A stretch of 64,000 bases of DNA from an uncultured archaeon (GTDB lineage Archaea > Thermoplasmatota > Penumbrarchaeia > JASLWR01), in assembly GCA_964430885.1 (NCBI GenBank), contig CAYSHM010000006.1, positions 32,001-96,000 on the forward strand, in the 5' to 3' direction. Below the pieces are notes generated by a model. That model was not told where the DNA came from. It searched no databases and saw only the letters and a program-made list of their open reading frames with translations. The position numbers and the translations under genes were made by a program. Position 1 is the first letter of the stretch. The number at the start of each line of letters is the position of its first letter. Positions 38,477-59,629 of the stretch are shown piece after piece.

Positions 38477-41400
38477 TTGATTATTATGAAATCTGATAGA
38501 AGCTTCTTAAAAATTGCATTTACATTATTCATACTGGTCTTTTTTGTTGCCCAAATGAATGTAGGAATTTTAAAAGGAGTTCCAGCAATAAAAAATGGCC
38601 TCCATACTGCAGAGATATCTCGGGATTTAATGAAAACCAGTAGGTCCAAAGGAGATCAATGGATGCTGGTAGATACCATCCAGGAAGAGATCACAGTACA
38701 GAGCGGATCTCAGACCTTCATTGAGATGAATGGAGAAACTGGAAAACTTGAGATAACTGATGCCCTGAACTTCAGCAGAGCTTTCAGTGATGATGCATTG
38801 GAGGATATATCTGCCGTTCCATCCTGGTTAAGACCAGCTTTAGAGGAGAAGCTTGTCTATGCAGGGGTAAAGGGGCATGAGATAGCTGACACATTCCACG
38901 CCTTCGGTGATCTGGACGGCGATAATGATCTTGATATGATCAGTTATGAATATCCGGAGTACCATTTCTATAAGAATGTAGGGACGCCTGCACTTTCACT
39001 GTTCAAAATGGATGATACAATTGGTTCATTGGAAGAACTGAACCGGATGGAACTGGATATGCCTATCACCCTGGGTGATGCAGACGGAGACGGTGATAAT
39101 GATCTGGTGGCAGGTTACTATTCAACATACTACTATTTTGAGAATACTGGTACAGCAAGAACTCCGATATTTTCCCTCATTTCTGAAACTGCCACTTCAT
39201 CAGGTTTGAACAGCCCTTGCTTATCAGACATGACGGATGATGGACTCTCTGATCTAATACTTGGCAAGGAGAACGGCAGATGCGAGCTATGGATAAATGC
39301 CGATTCAGAGAACGAGACTGAATTTTTCCAAAATTCTCTCGCCATGACCATTGTCGATGTGGGAAATGATGCCTCTCCTACGGCAGGAGATATGGATGGC
39401 GATGGTGACCTGGACCTCGTGATAGGGTCGGATTCAGCTATCCTTCACTATTACGAGAACATGGGTTCCGAGACTTCACCTTTGTTCACATCGGATAACC
39501 TGGCCATATTCGCGGATATCAGGGCAGGCACCAGGCTTCGCCCTCATCTTGTTCCACTGGATACCGATGGGCTGAATGACCTGGTTCTCTCTTCCTCCCA
39601 GGATCGAACCTATTTCTTTGATAATTTAGGGTCCTCCTACAATCCCCTTTTCAAGATATCCTCCAGCTACGAGCTATGGTCGGGTATGTACTATTATCCA
39701 CCAAACCGATTGCTGAGGATCATGGACGAATCTGTTGTCCAGCCCTATCTTGACCTGATATCATCTGCCCCAGCCCACCTTGTTGATGAGATAGCCTATT
39801 CCATATCCTACACTAGTGATGATGTGCTCCTCAATGGCCAGGTTCTACCAGAAATGTATCTTGATAATGCTGAATATGTTTATTATGCTGATGAAAGACT
39901 TGATTATGTGGACCTTGTCGAAATAGAGGATATGAATATGGGCGGTCCATACACTACAGCGGTCTACAGAGTAACTGAGAACGAGATGCTCAGAGAGATC
40001 ACCATGCCCAGGGATATCTATTATCGGTTCATTGTGCACCCAAAAGTGACCGAGGAAACCCCAACTTTCATAGATCCTGATACCGGCGGTTTTTCCCAGC
40101 CGGTGAGCAATGGCGGTAACGGCCGGTTCTGGCGGGAATATTTTCTCAACCATGCTGATGACTCCTACCCTTCTGATCCTGACCCGGATGACGGCCTTGA
40201 CCAGTATCCTGAAAATGCCACTCCTCCTCTACTTCTGGAGCTTCTGGAGGGCGTTGAGACCCTTTTCAACAGAACCACTTTTCACGCTCCTGCCGACAGG
40301 GACCCCTATTACGGAGACCATGCTGTAATACGGATCTCAAATTGGGTGGGCAAGACCCTGATACTCAATCAGCAGGAAGTGAGCGATGATGAGCGCCCCA
40401 TTCAGCCCGTGCGTATCGCACGGAGCCATAATGGGAACTGCGGTGAGCTTCAGGACCTTACGGTCGCAGCGGCTAGGGCCGCATTGGTCCCGGCAGCAGG
40501 TGCTATTATGATGGCTGAGGACCATGTATGGATAGAGTTCTGGGAGGATGAATGGCATCAATGGGATAACTACTGGAGCGACAGCGGAAGTATTATCGAT
40601 AACTGGGACAACTACTGGTACGGTTGGGGAGGAAGAGGGGGTTCAGGCATATACAAATGGTATTCCAATGATATGATAGGCGATGTTACACCTCAATATG
40701 TACCTTCAGAGGTGCTGTCGGATGTAAATGTGCTTGTCACTGATAGGAACGGTGAACCTGTAGATGGTGCAAGGGTAGTGATCGGGTCCCATTGGCTTAT
40801 GGAACACTCTACTGATTCTGACATCACAGCCCCCTTTCCAAGCATTTGGAATTACACTGATTCCGATGGTTTTGCCCGATTCAGGCTTACAAGCAATAAC
40901 ATATCCATCAAGGTAATTTCCCGTTTAGGCAACGGAGCAGTGACCAAAACATTTATCGATCCGGGTACGGTTTATCATTTTGAGGTATCTTTGGAAGGTG
41001 CAAAGAACCGTCCGCTAATGAGAGTAATGGAGATACCTGACCCGGAAGATGATGATTGGAAGATCGAATATGATCTTGAGGTTGTCGGTGCTTATCAGCG
41101 CCCGCCGAATGCAGATACAGGTTCTGTTCATAGCCATCCTATTTACAGTGCCAACCATATGGATTTTTCCATATTGCCACAGAATGAGTTTCATTCATTT
41201 CGAAGAACAGGTATTTGGGCATCAGGCTTCCGGCCAATATCTGATACGGTTGATTATACGGGAGATATCCAGGTGGGAACGGACCGCAATGTATATTTCC
41301 TCCTTCATAACTGCGACCAGATGGAGACATTCAAAAAGGTAAAGGTGAATCTCAGTGTTTACAAAAGAATGGACAATAAACCCTTTGTGACAATTGAAGA

Positions 41401-43169: not shown

Positions 43170-46100
43170 ATGTCAGAAATAAATCTCAAAGGTATTATTC
43201 TGTCTGTTTTTGTGATGTTATTGTTCATATTTGGTTCATTTCAGATGATAGATCTGGAAAGTGATAAGTGTTCAAGCAGAGTTCAATTTAGGAGCGGAGC
43301 TTCTGAATCAGTTAATGAATATATGGTTATTGAACCGGAATATCTCAAAATGACAAGGGGCAATCTCGTGAACGGAGTTGGTTCCTGGAGCTATGAGGTT
43401 GTAAATGACGGTCCTGATGTGGGCTATGATATCTCACTGGCCAGAGGGAATGACGGAAGCATTCACATCTGCTACCACGACGATCCCATTGACCGTATGG
43501 CATATATGAAATGGGAGTCAGGCACCTGGGAAAGAACGCTCCTGGATTACAATATCGTTAAGAACTATGGATCCAGTATAGATCTGGATTCCCATGGCAA
43601 CCCAGGAATGACATATTCGGCAATAGGTGAATTGATATATGTCAGTCTTGTAGGCGGAGATTTTGTCAACCAGACAGTAGATTTTGAGACTGGAGGGTAT
43701 GTGGGAGTGTATTCTTCCCTGAAATACGATTCCAGTAATGACCCGCATATAAGCTATCAGGATGCTTCGCCCGGATTCTTTGATCTGATGTATGCCTATA
43801 ATACGGCGGATACCTGGTATGTTGAGATAGTTGATGACGAAGGAACCAACGGCAAGTTCACCTCATTGGATCTGGATAACAACGGGAAACCCCATATCGC
43901 CTACCAGAAGACGGAAGGATTCGAGCTGAGATATGCTGACAAAACAGGTGCGGCTTGGGATACGGAAACCATAGAGGCGGGTGAAGCGTCCTATGGGTGG
44001 CATAACTCGATAGCGGTAGATTCTAACGGGAGACCTCATATCGCCTATTACGAGAATACCAACGGAATTCTGAAATATGCCCGCTGGACCGGTTCTCAGT
44101 GGTCCATTGAACAGGTGGACCCTGCGGAATATGCAGGTAGTTACCCATCACTTGTTCTGGATGATTCCAACAATCCTCATATCTGCTATTACAGCTCCCG
44201 CTGGAACTCCGATAACGGCCGGTTGAAATATGCCCATAAGACTGGTCAGGGATGGACATTGGAATTTCTGCATAATTCCACTGCCATGGGAAAACATCCT
44301 TCTTTAGTGCTTGATGATGATGAGAGGCCTGTTGTGGCATATACCGATGCTGGTCAGGATGCACTCCGATTATTGAGATGGGATGATGAGGCCCCATCAG
44401 CAAATGCAGGTACGGATATTGTGACCCTCCAGGGAGTGAATACAGATTTTAATGGGTCCGGATCAAGGGACAATTACGGTATTTCCAGCTACGATTGGAC
44501 TTTTGAATACAACGGCTACATGAAATATCTCACCGGAAAGACGCCCTACTACAAGTTCAATGATGTGGGGGTTTACACCATAACCCTCAATGTTACGGAT
44601 AATGCAGGCAACTGGGATCAGGTTGTCTTCAATGTTACCGTTAATGATAATGAGCGACCTTACGCAGATGCCGGTGGCCCTTACAACGGCCCCCAGAACG
44701 AAGCAGTTTATTTCAACGGCAATGTATCATATGATAATGTGGGCATAGACAGCTATACCTGGACATTGGACTACCAGGGAGCTGAAGAGGAGCTGTTTGG
44801 GATAGATCCCTATTTTGTGTTCGGAGAAGCAGGTCAATACAACATTTCTCTCAATGTAACGGATTCAGCTGGGTTTTGGGATACTGACGCTGCTACAGTG
44901 ACCATATGGGATTCTGAGAATCCGGTGGCAGTTGCTGGGAATGACCGGACAATTGATCAAGGTGAAGGAATAACGTTTGATGGGCTTTCCAGCACTGATA
45001 ATACGGAGATAACCGGTTATGAGTGGACCATATTCCTTGAAGGCATGGTAGTAGAGGTTTTCGGAGGAGCTACCCCCAAGTATGTTTTCAATAATGCCGG
45101 GGAATATGTGGTTTCTTTGAATGTTTCTGATTCCACCGGCAACTGGGATATTGATTCCATTACCGTGACGGTTCTGGATACCACCGACCCCACGGTTCAG
45201 GGCGAGGTTCCGGATTCGGTTCCTCAGGGGACCAGGGTGCTATTGAACGCTACGGCTAGTTCAGACAACGTGGGTATTGTGAAGTATAAATGGACCTTCA
45301 ATTACAATGGTATCTCCATGTCACTGAACACTGCTTTAGCCGAATTCACCTTTGAGATAATAGGTCTGTATGATATTGTTTTGAAAGTTGAGGATGCCGA
45401 GGGTAATTATGATACCCTGCATTTTTCATTGAACGTAACAGATACGATGTCCCCTGCAGTAGAGATCACTAGTGCCAGTCCAAAGGAGGTTAATGGCTCT
45501 CTCTATGTTTTCGATGCATCGGGCAGTTCAGATAATATGGATATTGTTCAGTATATCTGGAAGTTCAAAGACAGGGGAAATGATGTCACACTAACTGGAG
45601 ATGTTGTGGAGTATAATTTTACCAAGGGCGGAAAATACAATATCAGTCTCAGAGTATTGGATGCAGCTGGAAATGAGAACGTTTCATTTGTTGTCATATC
45701 TTACGGGAAGGTTTCCCAGGGTGATGACGATTCTTCGTCGGATGACGATTCATCCGATGATGATGATTCAGTTTCGGGAGATAAGGGCAGTGGTGATGAT
45801 GGACCAAATTGGCTCTTGATAATAATATTATTAATGCTGGCAGCCATTATTATAGGTGTCGGAATAGTGGTAGCGGTTTATATGGTGAAGAAGAATAAAG
45901 AGGAGAAGGATGAACCGGATGATGATAGGGTAGAGGGTATTGAAGAAGCCTCTCAACCCCAATCACCCCAGGAGCTCTACGCCCAGCTTTATGGTTCTTC
46001 ACCTCCCAGGGGTCCGGGAGATTACGGAAATGAAGGAGTAGTACCTGGCCACTCAGGACCTCCTCCGGCAGAACGAAGGTCTCCTACTGCCGAACAAGCT

Positions 46101-46241
46101 AAGCAAAAAGCGGTTCAGCAAAAAGCAGCCGCGGAACCTGGAACTCCGCAGCAAAACCCGAATGCCGAAAAAATCGCTCCTGGTAAACCCCGATCACCTC
46201 AGGTTCCCGGCAGCAGTCCGCCTCGACCACCGAAACAATAG
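43170..46241 (+). CDS. Surface protein: beta-propeller, PKD repeats, TM anchor and Pro-rich tail
   Basis: Repeated SL.LD....PHI.Y...LKYA blades; five S.DN..I..Y.W PKD units; WLLIIILLMLAA TM. Confidence 0.82.
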   Translation: MSEINLKGIILSVFVMLLFIFGSFQMIDLESDKCSSRVQFRSGASESVNEYMVIEPEYLKMTRGNLVNGVGSWSYEVVNDGPDVGYDISLARGNDGSIHICYHDDPIDRMAYMKWESGTWERTLLDYNIVKNYGSSIDLDSHGNPGMTYSAIGELIYVSLVGGDFVNQTVDFETGGYVGVYSSLKYDSSNDPHISYQDASPGFFDLMYAYNTADTWYVEIVDDEGTNGKFTSLDLDNNGKPHIAYQKTEGFELRYADKTGAAWDTETIEAGEASYGWHNSIAVDSNGRPHIAYYENTNGILKYARWTGSQWSIEQVDPAEYAGSYPSLVLDDSNNPHICYYSSRWNSDNGRLKYAHKTGQGWTLEFLHNSTAMGKHPSLVLDDDERPVVAYTDAGQDALRLLRWDDEAPSANAGTDIVTLQGVNTDFNGSGSRDNYGISSYDWTFEYNGYMKYLTGKTPYYKFNDVGVYTITLNVTDNAGNWDQVVFNVTVNDNERPYADAGGPYNGPQNEAVYFNGNVSYDNVGIDSYTWTLDYQGAEEELFGIDPYFVFGEAGQYNISLNVTDSAGFWDTDAATVTIWDSENPVAVAGNDRTIDQGEGITFDGLSSTDNTEITGYEWTIFLEGMVVEVFGGATPKYVFNNAGEYVVSLNVSDSTGNWDIDSITVTVLDTTDPTVQGEVPDSVPQGTRVLLNATASSDNVGIVKYKWTFNYNGISMSLNTALAEFTFEIIGLYDIVLKVEDAEGNYDTLHFSLNVTDTMSPAVEITSASPKEVNGSLYVFDASGSSDNMDIVQYIWKFKDRGNDVTLTGDVVEYNFTKGGKYNISLRVLDAAGNENVSFVVISYGKVSQGDDDSSSDDDSSDDDDSVSGDKGSGDDGPNWLLIIILLMLAAIIIGVGIVVAVYMVKKNKEEKDEPDDDRVEGIEEASQPQSPQELYAQLYGSSPPRGPGDYGNEGVVPGHSGPPPAERRSPTAEQAKQKAVQQKAAAEPGTPQQNPNAEKIAPGKPRSPQVPGSSPPRPPKQ

Positions 46242-46593: not shown

Positions 46594-47223
46594 TTGTCAG
46601 AAGGATTACAGTTGAGGACATTTATATTCATCGATCAGATGCAGCCGCAATTTGCAGCATATCAGGCTACTGTCGGGAGAGGTTATCTGCCAGTATCAGG
46701 TATGGCTGCAATATATATTGAAACTGCACCCGGAATGCCCATCAATCGGGTTACGGATCTGGCATTGAAATATACAAGTGTGAGACCGGCAGAACTAATA
46801 GTGGAGCGAGCTTTTGGAATGTTGGAATTCCATCATGAATCCCAGTCCGAGGTCAGAACAGCGGGAAAAGCCGTTCTAGATGGCCTAGGTTTGGAGGAGA
46901 TGGACAGATATAAACCAAAGGTTGTGACCAATGAGATAATCAAGAAAATAGATGATTACCAGTCAATGATAATCAATCGTTCCTGGAGGGGTATGATGAT
47001 CCTTCATGATCATTCTCTCTTCATTATGGAGACTCAGCCTGCCGCTTATATAACCTATGCCGCAAACGAGGCCGAAAAGGCAGCAGATATCAATATTGTC
47101 GGCATCAGGGCAGCCGGTGCCTTTGGCAGGCTGTACATCAGCGGTTGGGAATCCGATGTCAGGGCCGCAGCGGATGCCGCTACGACGGCCATAGAGGGTA
47201 TTGACGGTAGGGATGATTGGTAG
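46594..47223 (+). CDS. BMC shell trimer, BMC-T (CcmP/CsoS1D-like, stacked-trimer type)
   Basis: LRTFIFIDQMQPQFA, ETAPG..I..VTDLALK, VERAFGMLEFH, ANEAEKAA, GAFGRLYISG. Confidence 0.93.
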   Translation: MSEGLQLRTFIFIDQMQPQFAAYQATVGRGYLPVSGMAAIYIETAPGMPINRVTDLALKYTSVRPAELIVERAFGMLEFHHESQSEVRTAGKAVLDGLGLEEMDRYKPKVVTNEIIKKIDDYQSMIINRSWRGMMILHDHSLFIMETQPAAYITYAANEAEKAADINIVGIRAAGAFGRLYISGWESDVRAAADAATTAIEGIDGRDDW

Positions 47224-47245
47224 TTCCGCCGACCTAGGTGTCTTT

Positions 47246-47992
47246 ATGGATCCCGACCGTCTCAGGACCATCGTTCTGGAGCAGGTACGGAGATATTTTC
47301 AGAACGAGGGAATGGAGTTCATTCGATATGAAAAGGATTCCGAAGAAGGATCTAAAGGTATATTGATAGTGATAAACCGAACTGATCCATCAATGGACCT
47401 TTTATTCAGCCAGATAAACAATCTGGTATCTGCTGGTCATAACATCACATTGATGAGCACCTCCGAAGTGAGGGCAATATTGGGCCAGCAGGGCTATTGG
47501 TCACTTGACCGGATCACCTACTTGTCTATTGATGATACCCGAAAGGTCAACATGAAAATTGACGAATATTGGTCCCTGCTATTTCCGGTTATAGGTTACT
47601 CCCTGGCCGGAGAGATATCAGCCTTAAAAGATACAAATCCATTGGCGGATTTGGCTTTGACGGCCCTGCGCAGTGGATTGGATGTCGGAGTGGCAGTGGA
47701 TACCCTTGAGACTGTAGGGAAGAAGGCTCGTAGGCCAAAGCTGATCTCCGAGTCCACCAGGATACAGAAGGGCTTATCGGGAATAGGCGTGAGATTGGTA
47801 ACCCTGGAAAATATGGTCAACGAGATGTCCTTTGACAAACGGAGGTTCACAGGCCGAGTGCTGACAGAGGATATAATAAACAGCTATATGTCCCGTGGCG
47901 TGTTCGATATCAATGTGGATGAAGATACTGTGATCACGCCTTTGGCAAGGGAAAGGGCAAGGGAGTTGAACATTCGAATAAATATCATTTAG
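47246..47992 (+). CDS. BMC-associated protein: encapsulation-peptide-like N-terminus, flavoprotein-like middle, C-terminal ITPLAR domain
   Basis: MDPDRLRTIVLEQVRRYF; VLTEDII...DTVITPLARERARELNI; located inside the BMC operon. Confidence 0.6.
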   Translation: MDPDRLRTIVLEQVRRYFQNEGMEFIRYEKDSEEGSKGILIVINRTDPSMDLLFSQINNLVSAGHNITLMSTSEVRAILGQQGYWSLDRITYLSIDDTRKVNMKIDEYWSLLFPVIGYSLAGEISALKDTNPLADLALTALRSGLDVGVAVDTLETVGKKARRPKLISESTRIQKGLSGIGVRLVTLENMVNEMSFDKRRFTGRVLTEDIINSYMSRGVFDINVDEDTVITPLARERARELNIRINII

Positions 47993-48040
47993 AAATTGAA
48001 TTAATAGGATCAGATATCATAGATCAAGGAGTGTAAGAAA

Positions 48041-48334
48041 ATGAAATTGTGCAGAGTGGTAGGAAATGTGGTAGCCACTGTCAAGGACCGAAACATCGAG
48101 TCCTTCAAGCTGATGATAGTACAACCGGTGGATTTCAAGGAACAGAAGCCCTATGGAGAGCCTCTAGTGGCAATAGATGCGGTTGGTGCCGGCCAAGATG
48201 AGCTGGTCCTGATAGTTCAGGGAAGTTCCGGCAGAATGACCGCTATAACTGACCAGAAACCGTCCGACTGTACGATAATGGCAATTGTGGATTTTGTGAC
48301 CTTAAACGGTGAACAGACCTTTGCAAAACGGTGA
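48041..48334 (+). CDS. BMC vertex pentamer BMC-P (EutN/CcmL family) #1
   Basis: M.LCRVVGNVVATVKD, VAIDAVGAG..ELVLIVQGSSGR, D..IMAIVD. Confidence 0.96.
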   Translation: MKLCRVVGNVVATVKDRNIESFKLMIVQPVDFKEQKPYGEPLVAIDAVGAGQDELVLIVQGSSGRMTAITDQKPSDCTIMAIVDFVTLNGEQTFAKR

Positions 48335-48352
48335 TCGAGGGAGGTTTTAATA

Positions 48353-49783
48353 ATGGAGATCAGGCAGGATCAGATAAATAATATTGTGGATGAGATAGTT
48401 AGAAGAGTGGAGCTGGATATGAGCTATGGGAAACCGAACATGGGGCCAGCCAAGCAGGGAGGCACTACAGGTATCTACAGCACTATTGACGAGTGTATTG
48501 AGAAGGCGAAGAAGGCAAGAAAGTTTTTGATGTCAATGTCATTGGATCAAAGGCAGAAGCTGATAGATGCCATGAAAGGGGAGATATTGCAGAACGCAGA
48601 TCCTCTGGCCAAGCTTGCTGTTGAGGAGACTGGATTGGGTCGGTACAAGGACAAGGTGAATAAGAACATTCTGGCTGCGACAAAGACCCCTGGATGCGAG
48701 GACCTGCAGACTGAAGCCCAGACGGGCGACGACGGTCTCACACTGTACGAGATGGGGCCCTTTGGAATTATAGCTTCCATAACACCTACTACCAATCCCA
48801 CGTCAACGATCACATGCAACTCCATCGGCATGATCGCTGCTGGAAACGCTGTTGTGTTCAATCCCCATCCGAGGGCTACCAAGACCAGTCTGGAGACCAT
48901 AAGACTGCTGAACCGGGGTATTCAGTCGGCAGGAGGTCCTACTGATCTTATAACAACGGTTAAAAAACCAACAATTGACACAAGCCAGGCTCTTATGAAC
49001 CATAAGGAGGTCAATCTACTCTGCGTAACCGGCGGTGAAGGAGTGGTGCATTACGGTCTTACCAGAGGGAAAAAATGCATTGCAGCAGGTCCGGGAAATC
49101 CTCCTGTTTTCGTGGACGATACCGCTGATCTGATACGGGCGGGCAGGGATATTGTGGACGGAGCCAGTTTTGACAACAATATCCTCTGTATAGCTGAAAA
49201 AGAGGTTCTGGTATTCGAAAATGTGGCAGATAGGCTAATCTCTGAGATGAGGAAACACGGTGCACATCTGGTCAGCGGAAAGGAGATAGACCGGCTGATA
49301 GATTTGGTATTCAATGATCCCTCGGGAGAGATCCCCCTGGTGAACACCAAATGGGTGGGTCAGGATGCAGGTAAGATACTGCGGAACATAGGAATAACCG
49401 ATAAGTTCAATGCGCGATTGATCCTTGCCGAGGTTCCTCACGATCATCCATTCGTGCTGGCTGAAATGCTAATGCCAATACTGCCCATAGTTAGGGTGAA
49501 ATCCATAGATGAGGCCCTTAAAATTGGTCTGAGAGCCGAACATAGATTCAGACATACCGCAGCTATGCATTCCACAAATGTGGACAATATGACCAAGGTG
49601 GGACGGGCAATGGAAACCACAATATTCGTTAAGAACGCTCCATCCTATGCAGGTCTGGGTTTTGGAGGTGAGGGATACTGCTCCCTTACAATAGCCGGAC
49701 CAACCGGTGAAGGAGTTACAAGGGCGAGGAATTTTGCCAGATTGAGAAGATGTACGCTCAAGGATTCATTCAGAATTGTGTGA
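48353..49783 (+). CDS. CoA-acylating aldehyde dehydrogenase (EutE/PduP-like) with N-terminal encapsulation peptide
   Basis: ETGLG, PTTNPTST, VTGG, AGPGNPP, SFDNNILCIAEKE, EMLMP, TIAGPTGEG. Confidence 0.95.
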   Translation: MEIRQDQINNIVDEIVRRVELDMSYGKPNMGPAKQGGTTGIYSTIDECIEKAKKARKFLMSMSLDQRQKLIDAMKGEILQNADPLAKLAVEETGLGRYKDKVNKNILAATKTPGCEDLQTEAQTGDDGLTLYEMGPFGIIASITPTTNPTSTITCNSIGMIAAGNAVVFNPHPRATKTSLETIRLLNRGIQSAGGPTDLITTVKKPTIDTSQALMNHKEVNLLCVTGGEGVVHYGLTRGKKCIAAGPGNPPVFVDDTADLIRAGRDIVDGASFDNNILCIAEKEVLVFENVADRLISEMRKHGAHLVSGKEIDRLIDLVFNDPSGEIPLVNTKWVGQDAGKILRNIGITDKFNARLILAEVPHDHPFVLAEMLMPILPIVRVKSIDEALKIGLRAEHRFRHTAAMHSTNVDNMTKVGRAMETTIFVKNAPSYAGLGFGGEGYCSLTIAGPTGEGVTRARNFARLRRCTLKDSFRIV

Positions 49784-49830
49784 ATAATAATCGATAATAA
49801 ATATTTCAGTCCAGCAGATCAGGTGAAAAA

Positions 49831-51192
49831 ATGGCTTCATTGGGAACGGATATGGTAAGGAACTCGGGGATAATAGGTGCGGGTGGTGCAGGTTTTCCTA
49901 CCCATGTCAAGCTGGCAGCTAAGGTTGATTGTGTAATAGCCAATGGTGCCGAATGTGAACCCCTTCTCAAGGCGGATAAGCAGCTCATGGAGCATTTCCC
50001 TGAAAAAATACTGGATGGTATGAAAGCAGCCATGGATATGACGGGAGCCCAGAAAGGTATAATAGCTCTAAAGAGAAAGTATGCGGATGCGGTGTCCTCC
50101 TTCAGAACTCGATTGGCGGATGCTGTGAACGGTAGATATGAAGGAATATCCATATTTGAACTTGAGAACTTCTATCCTGCAGGCGACGAACAGGTCATGG
50201 TCTATGAAGTGTTAGGACGGGTAATTCCCGAAGGCGCCATACCATTGTCAGCAGGTGTTGTTGTGGACAATGTGGGGACCCTGGCCCAAATATCGGAAGC
50301 CATTGAAGGAAAAAATGTTACCCATCGGTGGGTAACGGTCACTGGTGAAGTGGCCTACCCAAAGACCCTTTACATCCCTATAGGTACTTCTATAGAAAAG
50401 ATGCTTGGATTGTGCGGGGGTCCGACAATAACCAATTACAGGATATTATCCGGAGGTCCCATGATGGGACGTCTAGTAAACCTTACCGATAGTGTTCTGA
50501 AAACCACCTCGGGTATCATAGTTTTCCCGGCAGATCATTATGTTGTGAAGGCTAAAACCCGCCCGGTGGAAGTGAATGTTAGGTATACTTTAGCGGCATG
50601 CATTCAGTGCAAAATGTGCACTGATGTATGTCCCAGATTCAATCTGGGTAAGTATGTATGTCCGGACAGTGTGATGAAAGGCATCGCTTACGGAATACTT
50701 TCAAAACCGGAGGATATGACCACCGCATTCCTCTGCGTTGAGTGCGGATTATGCACCCATTACGGATGCCCTATGGGTTTGGACCCCTGCGGTATGATGG
50801 GGAAGGTCAAATCCGAACTTATTTCCGAAGGTATGACGAACCCACATTCAAGGACGGATCTGTCTGCCAGGGAATACAGGCCTTTCAGAAAGGTTCCCCT
50901 AAAAAGATTGATGGCCAGGATGGATCTTTTGAGATATGATGTACCGGCACCCATGGAGCTGAAGGACCTATCGAAGGTTATTACAGAAGTGAATATCCCT
51001 CTTAAACAGCACATAGGCGCGCCTTCGAAACCTGTTGTGAAAGTGGGAGATCAAGTGAAGAAGGGTGAACTGATAGCAGATATTCCAAAAGGTTCTCTGG
51101 GGGCACGGTATCATTCCAGCATTAACGGTGAAGTAACAGGTGTGGATTCCTGCATCAGTATTAGAGCAAAGAAAATCGGAGGAATTGAATGA
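49831..51192 (+). CDS. pduS: PduS-like (RnfC family) flavin/Fe-S oxidoreductase
   Basis: GAGGAGFPTHVK, ANGAECEP, YPAGDE, GGPMMG, two CxxCxxC..CP motifs, C-terminal PLKQHIGAP. Confidence 0.9.
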   Translation: MASLGTDMVRNSGIIGAGGAGFPTHVKLAAKVDCVIANGAECEPLLKADKQLMEHFPEKILDGMKAAMDMTGAQKGIIALKRKYADAVSSFRTRLADAVNGRYEGISIFELENFYPAGDEQVMVYEVLGRVIPEGAIPLSAGVVVDNVGTLAQISEAIEGKNVTHRWVTVTGEVAYPKTLYIPIGTSIEKMLGLCGGPTITNYRILSGGPMMGRLVNLTDSVLKTTSGIIVFPADHYVVKAKTRPVEVNVRYTLAACIQCKMCTDVCPRFNLGKYVCPDSVMKGIAYGILSKPEDMTTAFLCVECGLCTHYGCPMGLDPCGMMGKVKSELISEGMTNPHSRTDLSAREYRPFRKVPLKRLMARMDLLRYDVPAPMELKDLSKVITEVNIPLKQHIGAPSKPVVKVGDQVKKGELIADIPKGSLGARYHSSINGEVTGVDSCISIRAKKIGGIE

Positions 51193-51746
51193 GAGAGTCT
51201 ATAGGTCTCATGGAGTTCAACAGCATTGCAAAGGGTATTGAGGTGACGGATGTTCTTCTGAAGGCTTCCGAGGTGGAACTCATATTCTCATCGCCGGTGT
51301 GTCCTGGAAAGTATCTGATAATGATCTCTGGTGAGGTGGAGGCTGTTAAGAATTCACTGGGAAAAGGAGCCGACATATCGGATGGTTTCCTCATCGATCA
51401 AAGTGTAATACCTCAGGTTCATGAAAAGGTGTTCCCAGCCATAGCTGGGACCACACTGCCCGAGGTGATGGGGGCCATTGGTGTCATAGACTGCTATTCT
51501 TCGGTTTCGGCAGTAGTGGCAGCCGATAAAGCGGTGAAATCCGCCGATGTAGATCTGCTGGAGATTCGATTGGCCAGGGCGTTGGGAGGAAAGGCCTTTG
51601 TCATAATAACAGGTGAGGTTGCCGATGTGAGGGCAGGTGTCGATAACGGAGTTGAGTCCATAAAGGAACACGGACTGCTGCTGGGCACAGTGGTAATTCC
51701 GTCCCCCCACCAGGACCTACTGGAAACGTTGATAGGATCGAGATGA
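51189..51746 (+). CDS. pduT: BMC shell trimer, PduT-like (Fe-S binding BMC-T)
   Basis: IGLMEFNSIAKG, VCPGKY with Cys38, second domain AADKAVKSA..RLARALGGK..IPSPH; directly follows pduS. Confidence 0.92.
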   Translation: MRESIGLMEFNSIAKGIEVTDVLLKASEVELIFSSPVCPGKYLIMISGEVEAVKNSLGKGADISDGFLIDQSVIPQVHEKVFPAIAGTTLPEVMGAIGVIDCYSSVSAVVAADKAVKSADVDLLEIRLARALGGKAFVIITGEVADVRAGVDNGVESIKEHGLLLGTVVIPSPHQDLLETLIGSR

Positions 51747-51843
51747 TCAGATCATAAATTCATATCACGATTAATTAAATTAATTAATTGATGAATAATT
51801 TGAAGAATATAATCAAGAAGATGAAAAATAGAAGTTGATTGAA

Positions 51844-52350
51844 ATGAGAATTTGCAGGGTAATAGGCAATCTGGTATCCACATGCAAGATACCTGATCAC
51901 GAAGGTTTCAAGATACTGGCGGTTCGTGCTGTCGATCTTCACGGCAGAATGCATGGTGAGACCTTTCAGGCTATAGATTGCGCCCAGGCAGGTGTGGGTG
52001 ATTTTGTGCTCGTGATAGAGGAAGGAGGCTCCTGCAGTCAGGTGATGAGCGGAGTTAAGTCGCTAACCCCCAAGGGTGACCGGGTGGCAGTCAACAAGTC
52101 CATTCTTGCTGTTGTGGATTATATTGAGGCTGATGGAGAGCTCAGAAGGCTGGAGCAGACAGCAGAGATGGAAGAGGATGGAGGAAAGAAAAAATTAAGA
52201 AGTACCAAGGTTAAAAGAAAGACCTCCAAGGCTACTGGAAAAAAGGGTAAAGAAAAAAAAAGTGAAAAAACGTCAGGAAAAAATTCCCGCAAACCTGCTA
52301 AAACCTTGGCAACAAAGAAAGGCAAGGGCGGTAAGAAGAAGAAGGGTTGA
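51844..52350 (+). CDS. BMC-P (EutN/CcmL) #2 with a Lys-rich C-terminal extension
   Basis: MRICRVIGNLVSTCK, AIDCAQAGVGDFVLVIEEGGS, ILAVVD, then a 56-aa basic tail. Confidence 0.92.
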   Translation: MRICRVIGNLVSTCKIPDHEGFKILAVRAVDLHGRMHGETFQAIDCAQAGVGDFVLVIEEGGSCSQVMSGVKSLTPKGDRVAVNKSILAVVDYIEADGELRRLEQTAEMEEDGGKKKLRSTKVKRKTSKATGKKGKEKKSEKTSGKNSRKPAKTLATKKGKGGKKKKG

Positions 52351-52356
52351 TAGATT

Positions 52357-53271
52357 ATGTCAGAAGACGAGCTCAGAAAGTTAGTAGAAAACATGGTTCG
52401 ATCCATGCTGGAATCCGGTTCTGTGGAGATACAGAAGGGAACTGCTCTAAGGACCCAGGGAGATATCTCAAGGCCTACCAACAATTATTTTAATGATCAG
52501 ATGGAGGGTAATGCCCGGTATGTGGTTGCAGCCAATTGGAAGATGAACATGACCACCATAGAGGCCAAGGAATTCGCTATGCAGATAAGGGCCTTAGGAG
52601 AGGAAATTTCCAATAGTAAAAGGGATGCAGTGGTCTGTCCTCCTATTTATTTGGCTCCTCTTCTGAAAACAGCGTTCATGGGGACGGGTATCCGGTTGGG
52701 CGGTCAGAATATGCACCATGAGACCAAGGGTGCTTATACCAGCGAGATATCGCCTCTAATGCTTAAGGATGCGGGTTGTCAATATGTGATAATTGGACAT
52801 TCTGAAAGGAGACATATATTTGGTGAAAAGGACCATCATATCAATATGAAGGTGAGGTCAGCTTTCAATCATGGCCTTGTACCTCTTTTCTGCGTTGGCG
52901 AGACCGAGAAGGAACGGGAGAGCAATGCTACCTTCAGGGTTGTCAGGAAACAATTGAAATTGGGCCTCTATAAGACAAGCTCCAAGCAATCCGGCAGGCT
53001 GATAATCGGTTATGAACCGGTTTGGGCAATAGGCACTGGGAGAAATGCTACTCCGGCTGACGCCCAAAGGGTACATGCATTCATCAGGGAGGTTCTGACG
53101 GAGATCTACGATTTCCCCACGGCCAAGAATATCAGGATTCTCTACGGCGGAAGCGTTACACCTGATAATGCTTCAGGTCTTATAGCCAAAAAAGATATCG
53201 ACGGTTTCCTGGTGGGGGGTGCTTCTCTCACCGCTTCCAAGTTTATGAGCATAGCGGAGGTGTGCAAATGA
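52357..53271 (+). CDS. tpiA: Triosephosphate isomerase, bacterial type, with N-terminal encapsulation-peptide extension
   Basis: ANWKMN, IGHSERR, YEPVWAIGTG, YGGSV, DGFLVGGASL. Confidence 0.95.
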   Translation: MSEDELRKLVENMVRSMLESGSVEIQKGTALRTQGDISRPTNNYFNDQMEGNARYVVAANWKMNMTTIEAKEFAMQIRALGEEISNSKRDAVVCPPIYLAPLLKTAFMGTGIRLGGQNMHHETKGAYTSEISPLMLKDAGCQYVIIGHSERRHIFGEKDHHINMKVRSAFNHGLVPLFCVGETEKERESNATFRVVRKQLKLGLYKTSSKQSGRLIIGYEPVWAIGTGRNATPADAQRVHAFIREVLTEIYDFPTAKNIRILYGGSVTPDNASGLIAKKDIDGFLVGGASLTASKFMSIAEVCK

Positions 53272-53747
53272 GCCAGGATATGAGGAAGATATTGATAGGT
53301 AGTGATCACGGGGGATTTGAGTTAAAGGAGATTATTAGACAGTTCCTCAAGGACCAGGGATACCGGGTTGTTGATTTTGGTTGCTATTCGCCGGACCCTG
53401 TTGACTATCCAGATATTGCCTTTTTGGTCTCTCAGGGGGTGTGTTCGAATCCTAATTCAATTGGTATAATGATAGATGGGGTAGGTGTTGCCAGTACAAT
53501 GGTTGCAAACAAGATTCCCGGGATCAGGGCCGCCCTTTGCTGGAATCAGTTCAGCGCACACAATGCACGTGAGCACAACAATGCAAATATGCTCGTCCTA
53601 GGGGGTAGGGTAATCGGTGATATATTGGCCAGGAGCATTGTGAAGGAATTCCTGGAAACAGAATTTGCCGGCGGACGGCACGCACGGAGGGTAGACAAGA
53701 TAATGGCGATTGAAGCCAAATATCTGAGGTCTATTCAGGAAAAATGA
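53268..53747 (+). CDS. rpiB: Ribose-5-phosphate isomerase B family
   Basis: GSDHGG..LK, VDYPD, ANKIPGIRAA, AREHNNANML.LG, FAGGRHARRV. Confidence 0.92.
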   Translation: MSQDMRKILIGSDHGGFELKEIIRQFLKDQGYRVVDFGCYSPDPVDYPDIAFLVSQGVCSNPNSIGIMIDGVGVASTMVANKIPGIRAALCWNQFSAHNAREHNNANMLVLGGRVIGDILARSIVKEFLETEFAGGRHARRVDKIMAIEAKYLRSIQEK

Positions 53748-53849
53748 GTTAAAAGTTAACAGAGTTAGGATAAATTTATTAGTTCAGTGTAATAATAATA
53801 TAAAACTTAATAATATAGAGTTGAGAGACGAATCTTGAGGAGTGAACCA

Positions 53850-54137
53850 ATGTATATCGGTAAAGTAATGGGAACCGTGGTGGCCACAAGGAAGATAGAT
53901 ACCCTTAAAGGGATCAAACTGCTCCTAATACAGCCCTTGGATGATGATATGAAACCCTCGGGAAGGTTACTGGTGGCCGGGGATGCCCAGGGAGATACAG
54001 GAGAAGGTGATGTGGTATATTTGGTCACCAAGAAGGAAGCCTGTTTCCCCTTCGGTGGTCTGACCCCCCTTGATCACGCTGTGGCGGGTTATATTGATGA
54101 TTATCATATTGAAGAATCTTTAAAAGAGGGGAAATAA
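53850..54137 (+). CDS. BMC-P (EutN/CcmL) #3
   Basis: MYIGKVMGTVVATRK...KLLLIQP, VAGD...GEGDVV....KEA, PLDHAVAGYID. Confidence 0.93.
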   Translation: MYIGKVMGTVVATRKIDTLKGIKLLLIQPLDDDMKPSGRLLVAGDAQGDTGEGDVVYLVTKKEACFPFGGLTPLDHAVAGYIDDYHIEESLKEGK

Positions 54138-54442
54138 GCATAACATGGACACTGCGGACAACCATCCAAGGCTCTATTTACCTGGAAGAAATATTTGGAC
54201 AGTAAATAATAATATAGGAATAAGGTAAGATTAGTGTGTTAATTTAATCCTGTTACCAGGATGTGAATTCATAATAGTATTGGATAGGGCATGGGTATGA
54301 GTAAAGGTAAAAAGCAATAGATGAAAAATTCGAAATCAGCTATTGAAATGTATAATCAATCAAAAATTATTGAGAAGTAGTAGTCAAGGATTATTACAAT
54401 GGAGATACATTGAATCCAAAACAAATCAAGGAGGAAAAATAA

Positions 54443-54736
54443 ATGAGAGATCTACAGAAAATTGCATTGGGAATGATTGAGACAAAGGGAGAGATAGGAG
54501 CTATAGAAGCTGCAGATGCCATGGTAAAGGCAGCCAAAGTGACCCTTATCGGAAAGGATTTCGTCGGCGGCGGCTATGTGTGCGTTATGGTCAGGGGAGA
54601 GGTTGGGGCTGTCAAGGCGGCAATAGACGCCGGTGGAGCCGCTGCAGCCAGGGTCGGAGAGCTTGTCTCAGTTCACGTTATTCCCAGGCCCCACGAGGAA
54701 GTAGAGGATGTTCTGCCTTCCATTGATAGGGATTAA
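54443..54736 (+). CDS. BMC shell hexamer BMC-H (PduA/EutM/CcmK family)
   Basis: [45 protein letters not shown]. Confidence 0.98.
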
Positions 54737-55067
54737 AGTAATACTGCATTAAATTGTTATTTGCAGGGATGGGCTGAAATATTCGCCTGCTCCCTTAGAG
54801 AACAGGATTTGCATTTGGAGATTTATCCTCAAAATAATAATGATATTCTTTTAGGAAGATCATCTGAATGTTTTATCCTGCAATTTACTCAATAGGATTA
54901 AATCGAATTGATATCTATGGTGATCATGAAAGCAAAGGCCATATGTCAATTACTTCCAGATTGAAATGCGGGTAGTATTGTTACCTTTGATATCAAGATC
55001 CGGGATATGGAATGTATGGCCTAAACACCACGAAAAAATTCAAGAATAGTGATAATGAAGTGATACA

Positions 55068-56507
55068 ATGGAAAGGGAGGAAGCGATCAAAAGGATAACC
55101 GAAGAGGTTCTTGCAAGAATTAGGGGCGCATCTTCGGGTAATTCTTTGAATACCTCACAGGGATCTGCCGCGGATCAATCCGAAAAGGGACGGAGTGCAC
55201 CTTATTTAGCCTCTGGGGGAAAATCCATTATTATGATACTCAGCGGAGACCGGACTATTGAGGATCTGAGAGAGGACATCAGTTCCATATGCAGTAGCCA
55301 GAAGGTTGAAATGATAGTGGTATCCGATTGGGCTCTTAGGTCCTTCAACATCTTTAAACTCAAGGGTTTAGCTCCTGGGATAAAACTGCTCCAGGAGGGG
55401 GACATATTGGGCAGCAAGACAATATCAGACATCTTATCAGACGTTGACTCGGTCTATGTTCTCGACCTGGATATTCCCAGTGCTTCGCGTATTGCAGATT
55501 TTGCTCCAGTGCTGCCTGCTGAAAGGGTTATCACAGGGGCAATTATTTCCGGTAAAAGCGTTATCTGTTCACATGCACTTCTGAGCCCAATGGCAGGGGA
55601 GCTAACTCCTCCATGCGCCCGTGAGGCCATTTCCGCAGTTGAGAAGAAGCTCGTGGCCGTCGGTGTTGCCATGCTTGGTTCGGGGACTTCTTTCAGTGAT
55701 AATGAAGCAGTGGAACAGGCCCTAGCCCGCTGCCCGGCGGGTGAAGGAGAATGTATTGGATGCGGATTGTGCGTGAACCTGAACACAGCAGGCGTGGAGA
55801 ACATCTTTTCAGCCGGAGCCCAGAGGATTAGTACGGCTACCGGATTGGATACCCCCAATCCAGATATGGCTCGTATGATAGATCACACGCTGCTGAAACC
55901 CGCTGCCACAGAGGATGATATCCGGGAGCTATGTGATGAGGCTAGAAGATACAATTTCGCTACGGTATGTGTTAATCCATCCCATGTAGCCCTTGCAGCA
56001 AGGGAGCTGAGAGGAACGGATGTTGGTATCACCACTGTCATCGGTTTCCCCCTGGGAGCAACAACCCATACCGCAAAGTCCATTGAGACCCGGGATGCAA
56101 TAGCCAATGGCGCCAATGAGATAGATATGGTGGTTAACGTTGGCGCTCTGAAGGCTGGCAACGATGATCTGGTAAAAAGGGATATTGCGTCAGTGGTGAA
56201 CGCTGCAGGCAATGATGCTATTGTCAAGGTGATTCTTGAGACCTCTCTGCTGAATGACGAGGAGAAGGTCAGGGGCTGCCTGCTCTCAAAGATGGCCGGG
56301 GCGGATTATGTGAAGACATCCACTGGTTTTGGTCCTGGCGGCGCTACCGTAGAGGATATCCGCTTAATGAGGCAGACTGTGGGCCCAGATATGGGGGTTA
56401 AGGCCTCTGGAGGGATCAGAAATACAGACGATGCCAATGCCATGCTTGAAGCAGGTGCTTCAAGGATAGGTGCTAGTGCTTCAGTTGCCATTGTTAAGGG
56501 CGCATGA
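55068..56507 (+). CDS. deoC: Deoxyribose-phosphate aldolase fused to an N-terminal encapsulation peptide, an extra domain and a Cys cluster
   Basis: C-terminal ~215 aa: [40 protein letters not shown]; N-terminal ~265 aa extension with CIGCGLC. Confidence 0.93.
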
Positions 56508-56620: not shown

Positions 56621-58480
56621 ATGAATGAAAAAGACCTCCAAAGGGACGATGGTCCCGCTACAGGGAATACCATGGAAAATGAAGAGGAGTTTTCATACAC
56701 TTCCGGTGAAATAACCGGCAAATCTCCCATGGAGCAAACTCTGGATCAAGGTCTTCAATTTCTCGAATACCTCCAAAAGCGGAAGGAAACATACAGGGCG
56801 GTCAAACTATATTTTCATAATGACATGGACGGTTTTGCTTCCTCACTTCTTGTGAACCATCTCCTGACAAAGATCGGTTATGAAATTCCTCTGGAGAACA
56901 TACACCCCTTGGCTCATGTCAACCTGAATAATGTGGCAATAGATGAACAGCATCTATTTTTCTTTGTAGATATACGGCCCCCTAGCTCAGCTTTCAAAGA
57001 ATCAAGTCTGGCGGGAGAGGATAGACCTTTCATGGAAAATGTTTTCTGTGTGGATCATCACACAACCCTGGATTCACCCCTTTCACCCCATGCGAATTTC
57101 TTTCTTTACAACTATGAGATCGATGATATTCTTCCATCCACTGCCACCTTCCTGATGTATTATCTTGTAATGCTTGAGAAAGGGATCAGGGGAACCTACG
57201 GTGCCCTCATGAGGGAATGGATGACGAACCCCCCCATGAACACAAGATATCTTCTGCTACAGGCCACCATTGCTGATCATCTTCATCTTCTGTCGGAAAA
57301 GCTACCCAATAATCCCCTGAGGTATCTATCCAACCTGCTTATTGAGGATATGGATGCCTATGTGCTCCTATCAATAACCACCTCACTGCTGCTGGGAGGG
57401 GACGGCGGACATATGGATATGTTCAGGCAACTATATTCCGAAGCCCTGGGGAATATCAATCAGGAATTAATGGCCCAGAAATTAGAGAACAATCTTTCTC
57501 AGGTACTTTCGCTTTTTGAATTCGTGGATATTCTCATGAAGAAGCGTAAGGAATTCATCGATGATATGGCCAAGGATATGGATGGGGAGATCCAGAGAAC
57601 AGAAGCTGGGATCAGCGGAATGACGGATACCCTGAATAACTATAACACCGCAGCCGATAAGATCAAGGAGGAACTCTCATTCCAGAATATAGCTATGGGG
57701 AAACTGAAGGATCTTCGAAATGATTACATGGGTATCAGGGAGCAGATGACGCGTTTAGAGAACCAGATAGGTATTGAGTTGGGAAGGCTTGAAAAACAGA
57801 AAGTTCTCAGATACCATCTTGTGGCTGAAGGAGACATCAATTTATCAGTTTTCCTGCCACCCCAGAACAATGATCAGGTTAGAGGCATACTGTCATCACT
57901 TCTATTTTATCACGGTAATAACAACATCATCATAGAGGAGAAGACATCCAAGGCCGTGTGGAGTTCAAGGGGTTATGAGGGAAAGGAATTGGAAAGCTTC
58001 CTGACAACAGTATCGGTGGACATGGAGAAATTGATGGAACTGAAGGAACATCAGGAGGCGGTGGAGGAATTTAAGGGAGATCCAACCATAATTGAGAAGC
58101 TTGAATTGGATGAGAGGTCCCCTCCTTTGATATCTGTGGAGAACCGATATATCGGACAGATGGGTGGCAGGAGTAGGATATTCGGCGGTATCATTACCAG
58201 CAATGTCACCCTTGATGCTAGCACTTTGGTTCAAGACAGAGGAGGTAATGAACTACAGTCCATACTTACGGTTCCTCACCAGCGGTTCTGGATATCAACT
58301 ATACAAGCAATAAAGGAAAAATTCAAGGAGAGCCAGTGGTTCACAGTACAGGTGGAAGGGGGTGCAAGCTTGGGCGAGATACTCTCAGACCAGTGGGAGC
58401 TGCTGCTGATGCATTTCATGGGCAATAGGATGTCATACAGGATTTTTGAACTGAAAAGCAATGGTCAAGATGGCATCTGA
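56621..58480 (+). CDS. DHH-superfamily phosphoesterase-like protein with a coiled-coil insertion
   Basis: YFHNDMDG (motif I), FVD (II), VDHH (III), IAD (IV); central heptad-rich helix. Confidence 0.6.
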   Translation: MNEKDLQRDDGPATGNTMENEEEFSYTSGEITGKSPMEQTLDQGLQFLEYLQKRKETYRAVKLYFHNDMDGFASSLLVNHLLTKIGYEIPLENIHPLAHVNLNNVAIDEQHLFFFVDIRPPSSAFKESSLAGEDRPFMENVFCVDHHTTLDSPLSPHANFFLYNYEIDDILPSTATFLMYYLVMLEKGIRGTYGALMREWMTNPPMNTRYLLLQATIADHLHLLSEKLPNNPLRYLSNLLIEDMDAYVLLSITTSLLLGGDGGHMDMFRQLYSEALGNINQELMAQKLENNLSQVLSLFEFVDILMKKRKEFIDDMAKDMDGEIQRTEAGISGMTDTLNNYNTAADKIKEELSFQNIAMGKLKDLRNDYMGIREQMTRLENQIGIELGRLEKQKVLRYHLVAEGDINLSVFLPPQNNDQVRGILSSLLFYHGNNNIIIEEKTSKAVWSSRGYEGKELESFLTTVSVDMEKLMELKEHQEAVEEFKGDPTIIEKLELDERSPPLISVENRYIGQMGGRSRIFGGIITSNVTLDASTLVQDRGGNELQSILTVPHQRFWISTIQAIKEKFKESQWFTVQVEGGASLGEILSDQWELLLMHFMGNRMSYRIFELKSNGQDGI

Positions 58481-58741: not shown

Positions 58742-59629
58742 ATGAACATTGAGAACAAGTTATGGTTTGGAATCATAGTAGGTGCAGTTGTTTTGCTGAT
58801 AGTTTCAGTTATTCTTTATGCTACATTCAAAGAGGAAAACGTTGAGGAAGGAAAGACCTCCATTCCTGTAATTCTAGAGGGTTATGAGATAGAGTACAAA
58901 TATACGGTCCGAATCGGCGGACCTAACGGACCGGTATATGATTCCAATATGGACAATATCATAAACTCATCTCTGGTTGAGAAAACGGTTTTCTATAATA
59001 ACTATGCTCAATGGCCGGAACGTTTCATAGTTGGTGAGCACCCGGCCGATGCGGAATTACCTTCCTTCAGCGATCATTTCATTGGACATGAGGAAGGGGA
59101 CCATTTCAATTTCGTTCTTTCGGGGGTGAGCCGTCTAGAATATAACGACAGTAAAAGGGTGGAAATACCTGTGAAGGAGAAGATACCTCTCTATGAGACA
59201 GTGAACAAAGAGCAGTTCAAATCATCGTTAGGAGCTGTGGATTTGAAGGTTGGTATGATATATAATCATGGTTTTTGGGGATGGGAAATTGAGATTTTTG
59301 AATTTATCGACGAGAATAATATGACAATTTATCACAGACCTGAGATAGGTTACGAAATAGATGTTCTTCCCTGGTCTTCCGAAGTGAAGGATGTATCATC
59401 TGAAACGGGTTTCATAACTCTGAATCATGATCTGACAGATAAAGATCTTCTAAAGGGCCAGTTCTACCCCTTTGAATACACGGATTATTCTGACCATTTT
59501 GATAATATGAACAATCCGGGTTACATCCAACAGCTTGGTCCGAATTATATAGTGATCGAGTTCAATGATGAACGCGCAGGTGCGGATATTTATTTTGATA
59601 TAGAGATAGTGAGGATTCTGAATTCCTGA
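58742..59629 (+). CDS. Membrane-anchored FKBP/SlyD-like protein (divergent)
   Basis: N-terminal TM; YTVRI...VYDS, F...FIG.E.G, IEFN..RAG..IYFDIEIV. Confidence 0.55.
   Translation: MNIENKLWFGIIVGAVVLLIVSVILYATFKEENVEEGKTSIPVILEGYEIEYKYTVRIGGPNGPVYDSNMDNIINSSLVEKTVFYNNYAQWPERFIVGEHPADAELPSFSDHFIGHEEGDHFNFVLSGVSRLEYNDSKRVEIPVKEKIPLYETVNKEQFKSSLGAVDLKVGMIYNHGFWGWEIEIFEFIDENNMTIYHRPEIGYEIDVLPWSSEVKDVSSETGFITLNHDLTDKDLLKGQFYPFEYTDYSDHFDNMNNPGYIQQLGPNYIVIEFNDERAGADIYFDIEIVRILNS

Follow-up and report, generated by a model that had tools for sequence, protein, structure and literature searches.

Why would a vertex protein of an archaeal microcompartment end in a tail about as rich in lysine as that of a linker histone, and does such a tail do anything? 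The question is raised by Pb, one of three genes for EutN/CcmL-type vertex proteins (BMC-P) that lie close together in the window, the whole 64,000-nucleotide stretch of DNA analysed here. The locus is a sugar-phosphate (SPU) microcompartment operon of a marine JASLWR01-like Thermoplasmatota archaeon, in which Pb would be a pentamer-forming protein of the shell vertices. The operon runs from 46594 to 56507 and is followed by one further gene of interest; the genes are given in order, with P-purple, P-grey and P-orange as the paralog names of Du et al. (2025):

46594..47223, plus strand: BMC-domain shell protein at the T(dp) position of JASLWR01 operons (Pfam PF00936, 7.6e-08; gene order in STable2 of Du et al.)
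47201..47992, plus strand: 263-aa protein without a family, the "DUF" of the operon (no Pfam match)
48041..48334, plus strand: BMC-P paralog Pa, at the P-purple / AMC-P1 position, 97 aa, untailed (Pfam, 96.1 bits; tree; gene order)
48353..49783, plus strand: aldehyde dehydrogenase (Pfam PF00171)
49831..51192, plus strand: RnfC/Nuo51-type flavoprotein, Mndh/PduS-like (Pfam PF01512, PF13375 and Fer4 families)
51189..51746, plus strand: tandem-BMC-domain shell protein, BMC-T (Pfam PF00936, two stretches)
51844..52350, plus strand: tailed vertex gene Pb, of P-grey / AMC-P3 type (translation of 168 aa plus stop; Pfam PF03319; DNA and RNA contigs identical; paralog type by BLASTP, trees and gene order)
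52357..53271, plus strand: triosephosphate isomerase, TIM (Pfam PF00121; 6 bases 3' of the Pb stop)
53262..53747, plus strand: RpiB-type sugar-phosphate isomerase (Pfam PF02502)
53850..54137, plus strand: BMC-P paralog Pc, of P-orange / AMC-P2 type, 95 aa, untailed, ortholog of the tailed protein of Hodarchaeales (Pfam; BLASTP; trees; position after RpiB)
54443..54736, plus strand: BMC-H shell hexamer protein (Pfam PF00936)
55068..56507, plus strand: deoxyribose-phosphate aldolase, DeoC, with an N-terminal extension (Pfam PF01791 at residues 270-469)
56621..58480, plus strand: DHH/RecJ-like protein just downstream of the operon, very acidic, net -34 (DHH Pfam match weak, E 6.3e-4, below cut-off)

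Pb thus keeps company with shell and cargo genes: between 46594 and 56507, Pfam finds three PF00936 genes and, among others, those for the aldehyde dehydrogenase (AldDH) and the deoxyribose-phosphate aldolase (DERA). The remaining shell proteins encoded here have acidic pI values, 4.7-5.3; the net charge is -10 for BMC-T and -15 for the aldolase fusion (Flav+DERA). BMC-P is present in 5 of the 401 Thermoplasmatota genomes sampled, and the nearest public locus, on contig JASLWR010000064.1 of a Thermoplasmatota MAG, is 64% identical. In the 209-aa product of 46594-47223, Pfam finds a single weak BMC domain (residues 144-200), and the first 140 residues match nothing. Directly upstream of the operon lie two very large surface-type proteins (43170-46241 and 38477-42994) with PKD, Big_7 and FG-GAP repeats; downstream, the window holds genes matching ribosomal L44e and S27e, eIF2-alpha and PAC2, which identify the DNA as archaeal. 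In what follows, G000 denotes the genome of this DNA and G001, G002, G003 and G005 the other Thermoplasmatota genomes compared. A fourth, satellite EutN/CcmL gene lies apart from the main operon and outside the window (G000 C26:45763-45993, minus strand, open frame of 93 aa); with counterparts of 90-120 aa in G001:C73, G002:C53 and G003:C1, it is common to all four genomes of the family, and in G003 it is the sole BMC-P found.

The product of Pb falls into three parts:

51844..52119, plus strand: EutN/CcmL (BMC-P) domain, residues 1-92 (Pfam, 52.2 bits; AF2; Foldseek)
52120..52179, plus strand: residues 93-112, the last strands and a short helix kept in the Pb clade (YIE..GEL.R), followed by EMEED, the acidic linker (alignment; AF2 strands at 93-96 and 99-102, helix at 103-110)
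52180..52347, plus strand: Lys-rich, predicted disordered tail of 56 aa, residues 113-168, pI 11.5 (composition; AF2 coil; no Pfam family; RNA contig over 52159-52309)

The domain is ordinary. PF03319 (EutN_CcmL) covers residues 1-92 with E 8.8e-14 and 52.2 bits against a cut-off of 25, and the ATG at 51844 is the start in all homologs (MRxCRV...); a TTG at 51835, also considered as a start, is unneeded. The tail, preceded by ...LEQTAEMEED, is anything but ordinary: its 56 residues include 23 Lys, 3 Arg, 9 Gly, 6 Thr and 5 Ser, so that K+R make up 46%, and its acidic residues are 2 Glu. The domain part has a pI of 5.0 and the tail one of 11.5, which lifts the whole protein from 5.0 to 9.9. The initial annotation had described just such a protein, a normal EutN/CcmL domain, an EMEED linker and a 56-aa tail with 23 Lys, 3 Arg and 2 Glu, and translation and Pfam show that description to be correct throughout. 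Its remark that BMC-P proteins usually have about 90-100 aa, as do the other two here, also agrees with what was found: those two measure 97 aa (48041-48334) and 95 aa from the ATG (53850-54137), and BMC-Ps elsewhere about 90-120 aa.

Structure prediction draws the same line between domain and tail. On an alignment of 110 rows, AF2 gives a mean pLDDT of 82, with nine of the first ten 10-residue blocks at 89-98 and block 71-80 at 76 (this model supersedes one from 11 rows, whose mean pLDDT was 48.8 and whose fold was unusable); residues 111-168 are predicted as coil throughout, at pLDDT 56-68, with no helix. The top Foldseek match of the model is 5v74, the BMC-P from the intact shell of Haliangium ochraceum (E 7.9e-09, TM 0.84 on the target), followed by CcmL, EutN, GrpN and CsoS4; phmmer against PDB sequences concurs (5v74 at E 3.8e-07), and the ESM Atlas returns generic EutN clusters only (0.83-0.85). 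As modelled, Pb matches the five-stranded barrel of solved BMC-P structures. With canonical BMC-P/EutN/CcmL pentamers (5v74; CcmL, 4jw0; EutN, 2hd3) it shares the Pfam domain, the predicted fold (TM on the targets 0.72-0.86) and the presence of BMC-H and BMC-T genes in its operon; those proteins have 80-111 aa and no tail, and Pb has 56 residues more. Together these data support Pb as a genuine BMC-P whose tail is abnormal, strongly basic and disordered.

How far does the likeness to a histone go? The C-terminal domain of linker histone H1 is expected to bind nucleic acids without sequence specificity, and its lysines are accompanied by Ala and Pro. The Pb tail resembles it in being about 40% Lys, of low complexity and disordered, but has its lysines accompanied by Gly, Thr and Ser, and there is no homology: residues 108-168 match no Pfam family at E up to 10, and in Pb, whose sole domain is PF03319, the winged-helix globular domain of linker histones is absent. 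The label "histone-H1-like" that had been given to the tail therefore describes its composition and not its descent.

Before any role is considered, the tail has to be real. Its DNA is 50% A and 75% purine (A is 28% genome-wide) and contains A-runs of up to 9 bases; the +1 frame across it is nearly open too, so that an open frame is by itself weak proof. A Lys density of at least 14 in 40 residues is nevertheless confined to 34 of the 4106 ORFs of at least 80 aa in this genome, and the tail is in that sense rarer than expected by chance. A tail of this kind might result from an assembly error, from a frameshift in an A-run, or from a real stop around residue 110 being read through, and the initial annotation had named confirmation of the frame in reads as one check to make. 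Logan contigs of two DNA runs (depths 14.6 and 18.4) span 51700-52600 with zero differences and zero indels; both runs are possibly source samples of the genome, which makes this a check of the assembly and not of the biology. A third DNA run, from the same study, agrees exactly over the flanks at 51987-52137 and 52304-52454, and a 151-base contig from a metatranscriptome run, which covers 52159-52309 (most of the tail and all its long A-runs), shows no difference. As a sign of transcription this one contig is weak, at depth 2.5 and with DNA carry-over possible. The reading is Lys-rich on both flanks of every A-run; no stop occurs between residues 92 and 168, whether near residue 100 or elsewhere, and TIM begins 6 bases past the Pb stop. 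A separate gene for a small basic protein, with its start codon at the Met within EMEED, was also considered and rejected: no stop divides domain from tail, and homologs run through. Since the tail reads the same in contigs of two DNA runs and in the RNA contig, frameshift and read-through are excluded, and an artefact of any kind has next to no probability left: the tail is real.

Is it new? Archaeal microcompartments were first described in 2025, in Hodarchaeales, JASLWR01 (Thermoplasmatota) and SpSt-1190 (Du et al., 2025, bioRxiv, PMC12747264), and the idea of a K/R-tailed vertex protein is already in print there: in 58 of the 66 Hodarchaeales operons, AMC-P2 is fused to a C-terminal, K/R-rich disordered region (IDR) of 36-137 aa. 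These tails bind DNA and RNA experimentally, and P2 without the IDR did not; DNA-binding vertex tails are presented as an innovation of Hodarchaeales. The Pb tail of Thermoplasmatota is not flagged in that paper, whose IDR prediction, according to the Methods, was run on Hodarchaeales AMC-P sequences. The main text names JASLWR01 six times, never in connection with an IDR, and a term search of the supplementary workbook finds "IDR" 62 times, which fits 58 flagged proteins plus headers. A full-text search for literature on microcompartments of JASLWR01 returned nothing beyond this paper. What is new, then, is the placement of the tail: another phylum, another paralog and a separate origin.

The two systems are close in kind. 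The Pb tail and that of the IDR-fused AMC-P2 described by Du et al. are both C-terminal, positively charged and disordered, fall within 36-137 aa and sit on a BMC-P of an archaeal SPU-type compartment; the Hodarchaeales operons are of the same type, with AldDH, Mndh, RpiB, DERA and three P genes. They differ in the host, Pb being from Thermoplasmatota, in composition, the Pb tail being denser in Lys (46% K+R, 2 acidic residues), and in spread, from a single lineage here to most members in Hodarchaeales. They differ also in the gene that carries the tail. In GCA_003144275 the order is P-purple, ALDH, Mndh, H, Ts, RPI, P-orange, P-grey, DERA, and this order, combined with the locus tags in the Methods, identifies P-orange as AMC-P2 (PMC12747264); the IDR rows of the tables are indeed P_orange, the gene directly after RpiB. 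The four JASLWR01 rows read Tdp, x, P-purple, ALDH, Mndh, Ts, P-grey, x, RPI, P-orange, H, DERA, an order that the window matches gene for gene, which places the tailed gene in the P-grey slot. The tail of Hodarchaeales thus belongs to the slot after RpiB, and that of Pb to the P-grey / AMC-P3 slot between Ts and TIM.

Sequence comparison separates the two tails in the same way. A 155-aa EutN/CcmL protein named Hodarchaeales (P0170), with a K/R-rich tail, shares a 90%-identity cluster with P0163 and has tailed relatives in P0090 (146 aa) and in P0162, whose 188 aa include repeats of a KVTGKAQ-like unit. In BLASTP, P0163 and P0170 match the untailed Pc at 44.6% identity (83-85 bits) and the tailed Pb at 25-26% (40-43 bits); for all tailed proteins of Hodarchaeales type, Pc is the best match (42-45% identity, 70-85 bits) and Pb the worst (25-28%, 40-49 bits). 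In a FastTree of 167 rows, one clade (SH-like 97) contains Pc, its JASLWR01 counterpart and the three tailed proteins, and another (SH-like 97) contains Pb with its 12 close relatives. IQ-TREE on 41 rows, hand-picked from the FastTree clades, again joins Pc to three tailed proteins of Hodarchaeales type, one of them named Hodarchaeales (99/95), and recovers the Pb clade (98/90); a tree that unites all four tailed proteins is rejected by the AU test (p 2.5e-06), this group having been named after the first tree had been seen. By these measures Pb is the P-grey (AMC-P3-type) paralog, and the P-orange-type Pc (53850-54137) is the untailed one. Trees, AU test and gene order all set Pb apart from the tailed AMC-P2, so the two tails are independent gains on different paralogs. 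As an aside on how such tails may lengthen, that of P0162 consists of about six tandem 7-residue units of KVTGKAQ type, which P0090, at 146 aa, lacks; this suggests that tails of the P0162 class grow through repeat expansion.

The Pb tail is also young. Three Thermoplasmatota orthologs (G001, 120 aa; G002, 118 aa; G005, 114 aa) have no long tail, and TIM follows immediately or overlaps; a 164-aa open frame at the G005 ortholog owes its length to upstream read-in, the protein itself being of 114 aa. Of ten close homologs (57-79% identity, 93-126 aa), none has a long tail, and nine lack a basic tail. The exception is the closest, P0002 (79% identity), with a basic end of 14 residues, 8 of them K/R, at the same place as the Pb tail; the contigs that encode P0002 (1917 bases) and P0003 (992 bases) possibly break off before the C-terminus. 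More widely, long basic tails are rare in the BMC-P family. Among the 149 best BMC-P cluster representatives of up to 260 aa (one match of 649 aa being excluded), 12 have at least 30 residues past the domain, and P0108 alone has at least 30% K+R in a tail of at least 30 aa, with P0090 at 29%. In a scan of 80 metagenomic loci related to P0162, a basic tail of at least 30 aa occurs once (L026: 35 aa, 11 K/R); other long match spans in that scan, taken at first sight for tails, were resolved by translation into adjoining P paralogs. With three Thermoplasmatota orthologs of 114-120 aa untailed, the tail is a young lineage trait, recently gained and not general to archaeal compartments, and an SPU-type compartment can dispense with it. 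The suggestion that it may be an archaeal adaptation holds to the extent that such tails are reported from archaeal compartments, and fails as a general statement, since the Thermoplasmatota orthologs do without.

A young tail that relatives do not need might have no role at all. It could be a neutral, recent low-complexity extension, grown by slippage and accretion at an A-rich 3' end and tolerated because the C-termini of BMC-P are free. The genome offers ample precedent: in G000, 34 of the 4106 ORFs of at least 80 aa contain at least 14 Lys within 40 residues, 9 of these stretches being C-terminal, and 13 of the 18 such ORFs scanned belong to ordinary families (ribosomal S3, L21e and S17, MscS, GrpE, an RFC-like AAA protein, a PilB-like ATPase, NYN, a xylose-isomerase-like TIM barrel and others), of which the TIM barrel, MscS and GrpE have no evident need for nucleic acid. 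Lys-rich low complexity thus looks like a proteome-wide habit of the lineage, and its frequency in this genome (34 of 4106 ORFs) makes neutral extension a live rival. That all three other Thermoplasmatota orthologs and most of the close homologs are untailed agrees with it, as do the 50% A of the tail DNA and its lysine codons: AAA and AAG stand at 12:11 in the tail and at 89:142 in the remaining locus, as would fit a young, A-rich sequence. Poly-Lys runs as such are not special to G000: (AAR)x6 has 24 matches there and 22, 19, 21 and 51 in four relatives, which are similar rates (the control, the pattern reversed, is itself almost identical to it), and the runs are about equally frequent in three untailed sister genomes. 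Examples of Lys-rich stretches in G000 are C4:164353-165495, C1:16594-18978, C2:203827-204741 and C7:43784-44929; a run of about 25 successive A bases lies at C2:240073-240100.

Several observations weigh against neutrality. In Hodarchaeales a similar tail arose separately on vertex proteins of the same compartment type; it persists there in 58 of 66 operons and binds nucleic acid (Du et al., 2025). Among the 149 representatives only P0108 reaches 30% K+R, P0090 stopping at 29%, and because of this rarity such tails are not a usual accident of the BMC-P family. The frame stays open until 6 bases before the next gene, and P0002 has its short basic end at the same place. We regard a purely neutral origin as somewhat unlikely; at the same time, the confinement of the tail to one lineage and the wealth of Lys-rich stretches in the genome leave the case for a function suggestive, not made.

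If the tail has a function, which way does it point? The preferred reading is that the Pb lineage recently gained a tail with a net charge of about +24 on each subunit, or about +120 per pentamer, and that the tails project from the outer face of the vertex into the cytoplasm. That orientation is suggested by other systems, in which C-terminal tags on BMC-P can be reached on assembled shells. P proteins with C-terminal Strep tags allowed shells to be recovered on StrepTrap (PMC12747264), and Strep-tagged pentamers pull down sealed Haliangium shells (Hagen 2018, in passages silent on which end was tagged); Kalnins 2020 gives the orientation of the facets and not the position of the C-terminus in the part relevant here.

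The reverse arrangement, with tails facing the lumen or the seams of the shell, would let them recruit acidic cargo (the aldolase fusion at -15, or sugar phosphates) or aid assembly. There is no shortage of negative partners, given the strongly acidic proteins of the locus (Flav+DERA, -15; BMC-T, -10; RecJ-like, -34) and substrates that are themselves anions, but the accessibility of C-terminal BMC-P tags on assembled shells speaks against an inward tail, the amphipathic helices known to target cargo belong to the cargo and not to the pentamer (PMC12747264), and the Pb tail has no predicted helix. A lumenal or seam role is very unlikely.

What would outward tails hold? On the preferred reading they would be non-specific polyanion binders, most plausibly of DNA or RNA, as are the AMC-P2 tails of Hodarchaeales; that the Pb tail works as those tails do, through DNA or RNA binding, is the most likely mode of action. 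The proposal of the initial annotation that the tail could bind nucleic acid is thus plausible, a comparable K/R-rich tail having been found to bind both DNA and RNA (PMC12747264); polyphosphate, which it also named, would be no more than a candidate. The consequence may be that nucleic acid is captured beside a compartment that burns deoxyribose 5-phosphate, or that the compartment is loosely tethered to the nucleoid. Taken as a whole, an outward, polycationic, nucleic-acid-binding brush on a P-grey / AMC-P3-type vertex, recently and independently gained, has in our estimate a probability of roughly 0.55, in which the outward orientation, the binding of nucleic acid and the physiological role are the parts we infer; the sequence, its occurrence in DNA and RNA contigs, the fold with its coil, the untailed orthologs and the separate origin are what the analysis shows.

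Tethering could also be the whole point, which was the main idea of the initial annotation. Known positioning systems for compartments are separate proteins with an ATPase or GTPase partner, McdA/McdB for carboxysomes and PduV. The role proposed for the tail, to locate compartments with respect to nucleoid or cell, is the same, but the 46 ORFs of the window that were scanned include no ParA/CbiA-type or small-GTPase family (McdB has no family model), in line with the remark of the initial annotation that the locus has no McdAB or PduV gene, and the 7 CbiA-family matches in the genome are all on other contigs. The tail may then serve, in place of McdAB or PduV, as a positioning or anti-aggregation device that ties compartments to the nucleoid or an anionic membrane or holds them apart; a DNA-binding tail would adhere to the nucleoid unaided, to judge from the tails of Hodarchaeales (PMC12747264). 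Against this, the sister genomes share the operon with neither tail nor positioning gene in the stretches covered, so the compartment can dispense with such a gene; membrane binding is unsupported, and positive vertices on acidic shells could equally cause clumping. A tail that serves for positioning or against aggregation is improbable.

A bolder extension of the nucleic-acid reading takes in the neighbours of the operon. The RecJ-like protein at 56621-58480 has 92 Asp and Glu against 58 Lys and Arg, and the ORF that follows (58742-59629) has a net charge of -29; either could be an electrostatic partner of the polycationic tail. Polycationic vertex tails might then be a selected, repeatedly evolved device, found in two phyla on different paralogs, that holds DNA or RNA, and maybe the acidic RecJ-like helper, at the shell surface, coupling the breakdown of nucleic acids directly to the catabolism of deoxyribose 5-phosphate within the compartment; we advance this tentatively and consider it unlikely in this full form. 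Nucleoside phosphorylase families (PF01048, PF00591) were tried as a sign of DNA scavenging and set aside, their matches in the genome recurring in 14 of 14 control genomes.

What would a functional tail on Pb mean for archaeal microcompartments? If it is true that such a tail was gained a second time and independently, this would be the first comparative hint that selection favours a tail in SPU compartments: a second phylum and another paralog, in the same kind of deoxyribose/sugar-phosphate operon, argue against a quirk of one lineage. The organisms themselves supply a natural pair, the same operon being tailed in this genome and untailed in its sister genomes.
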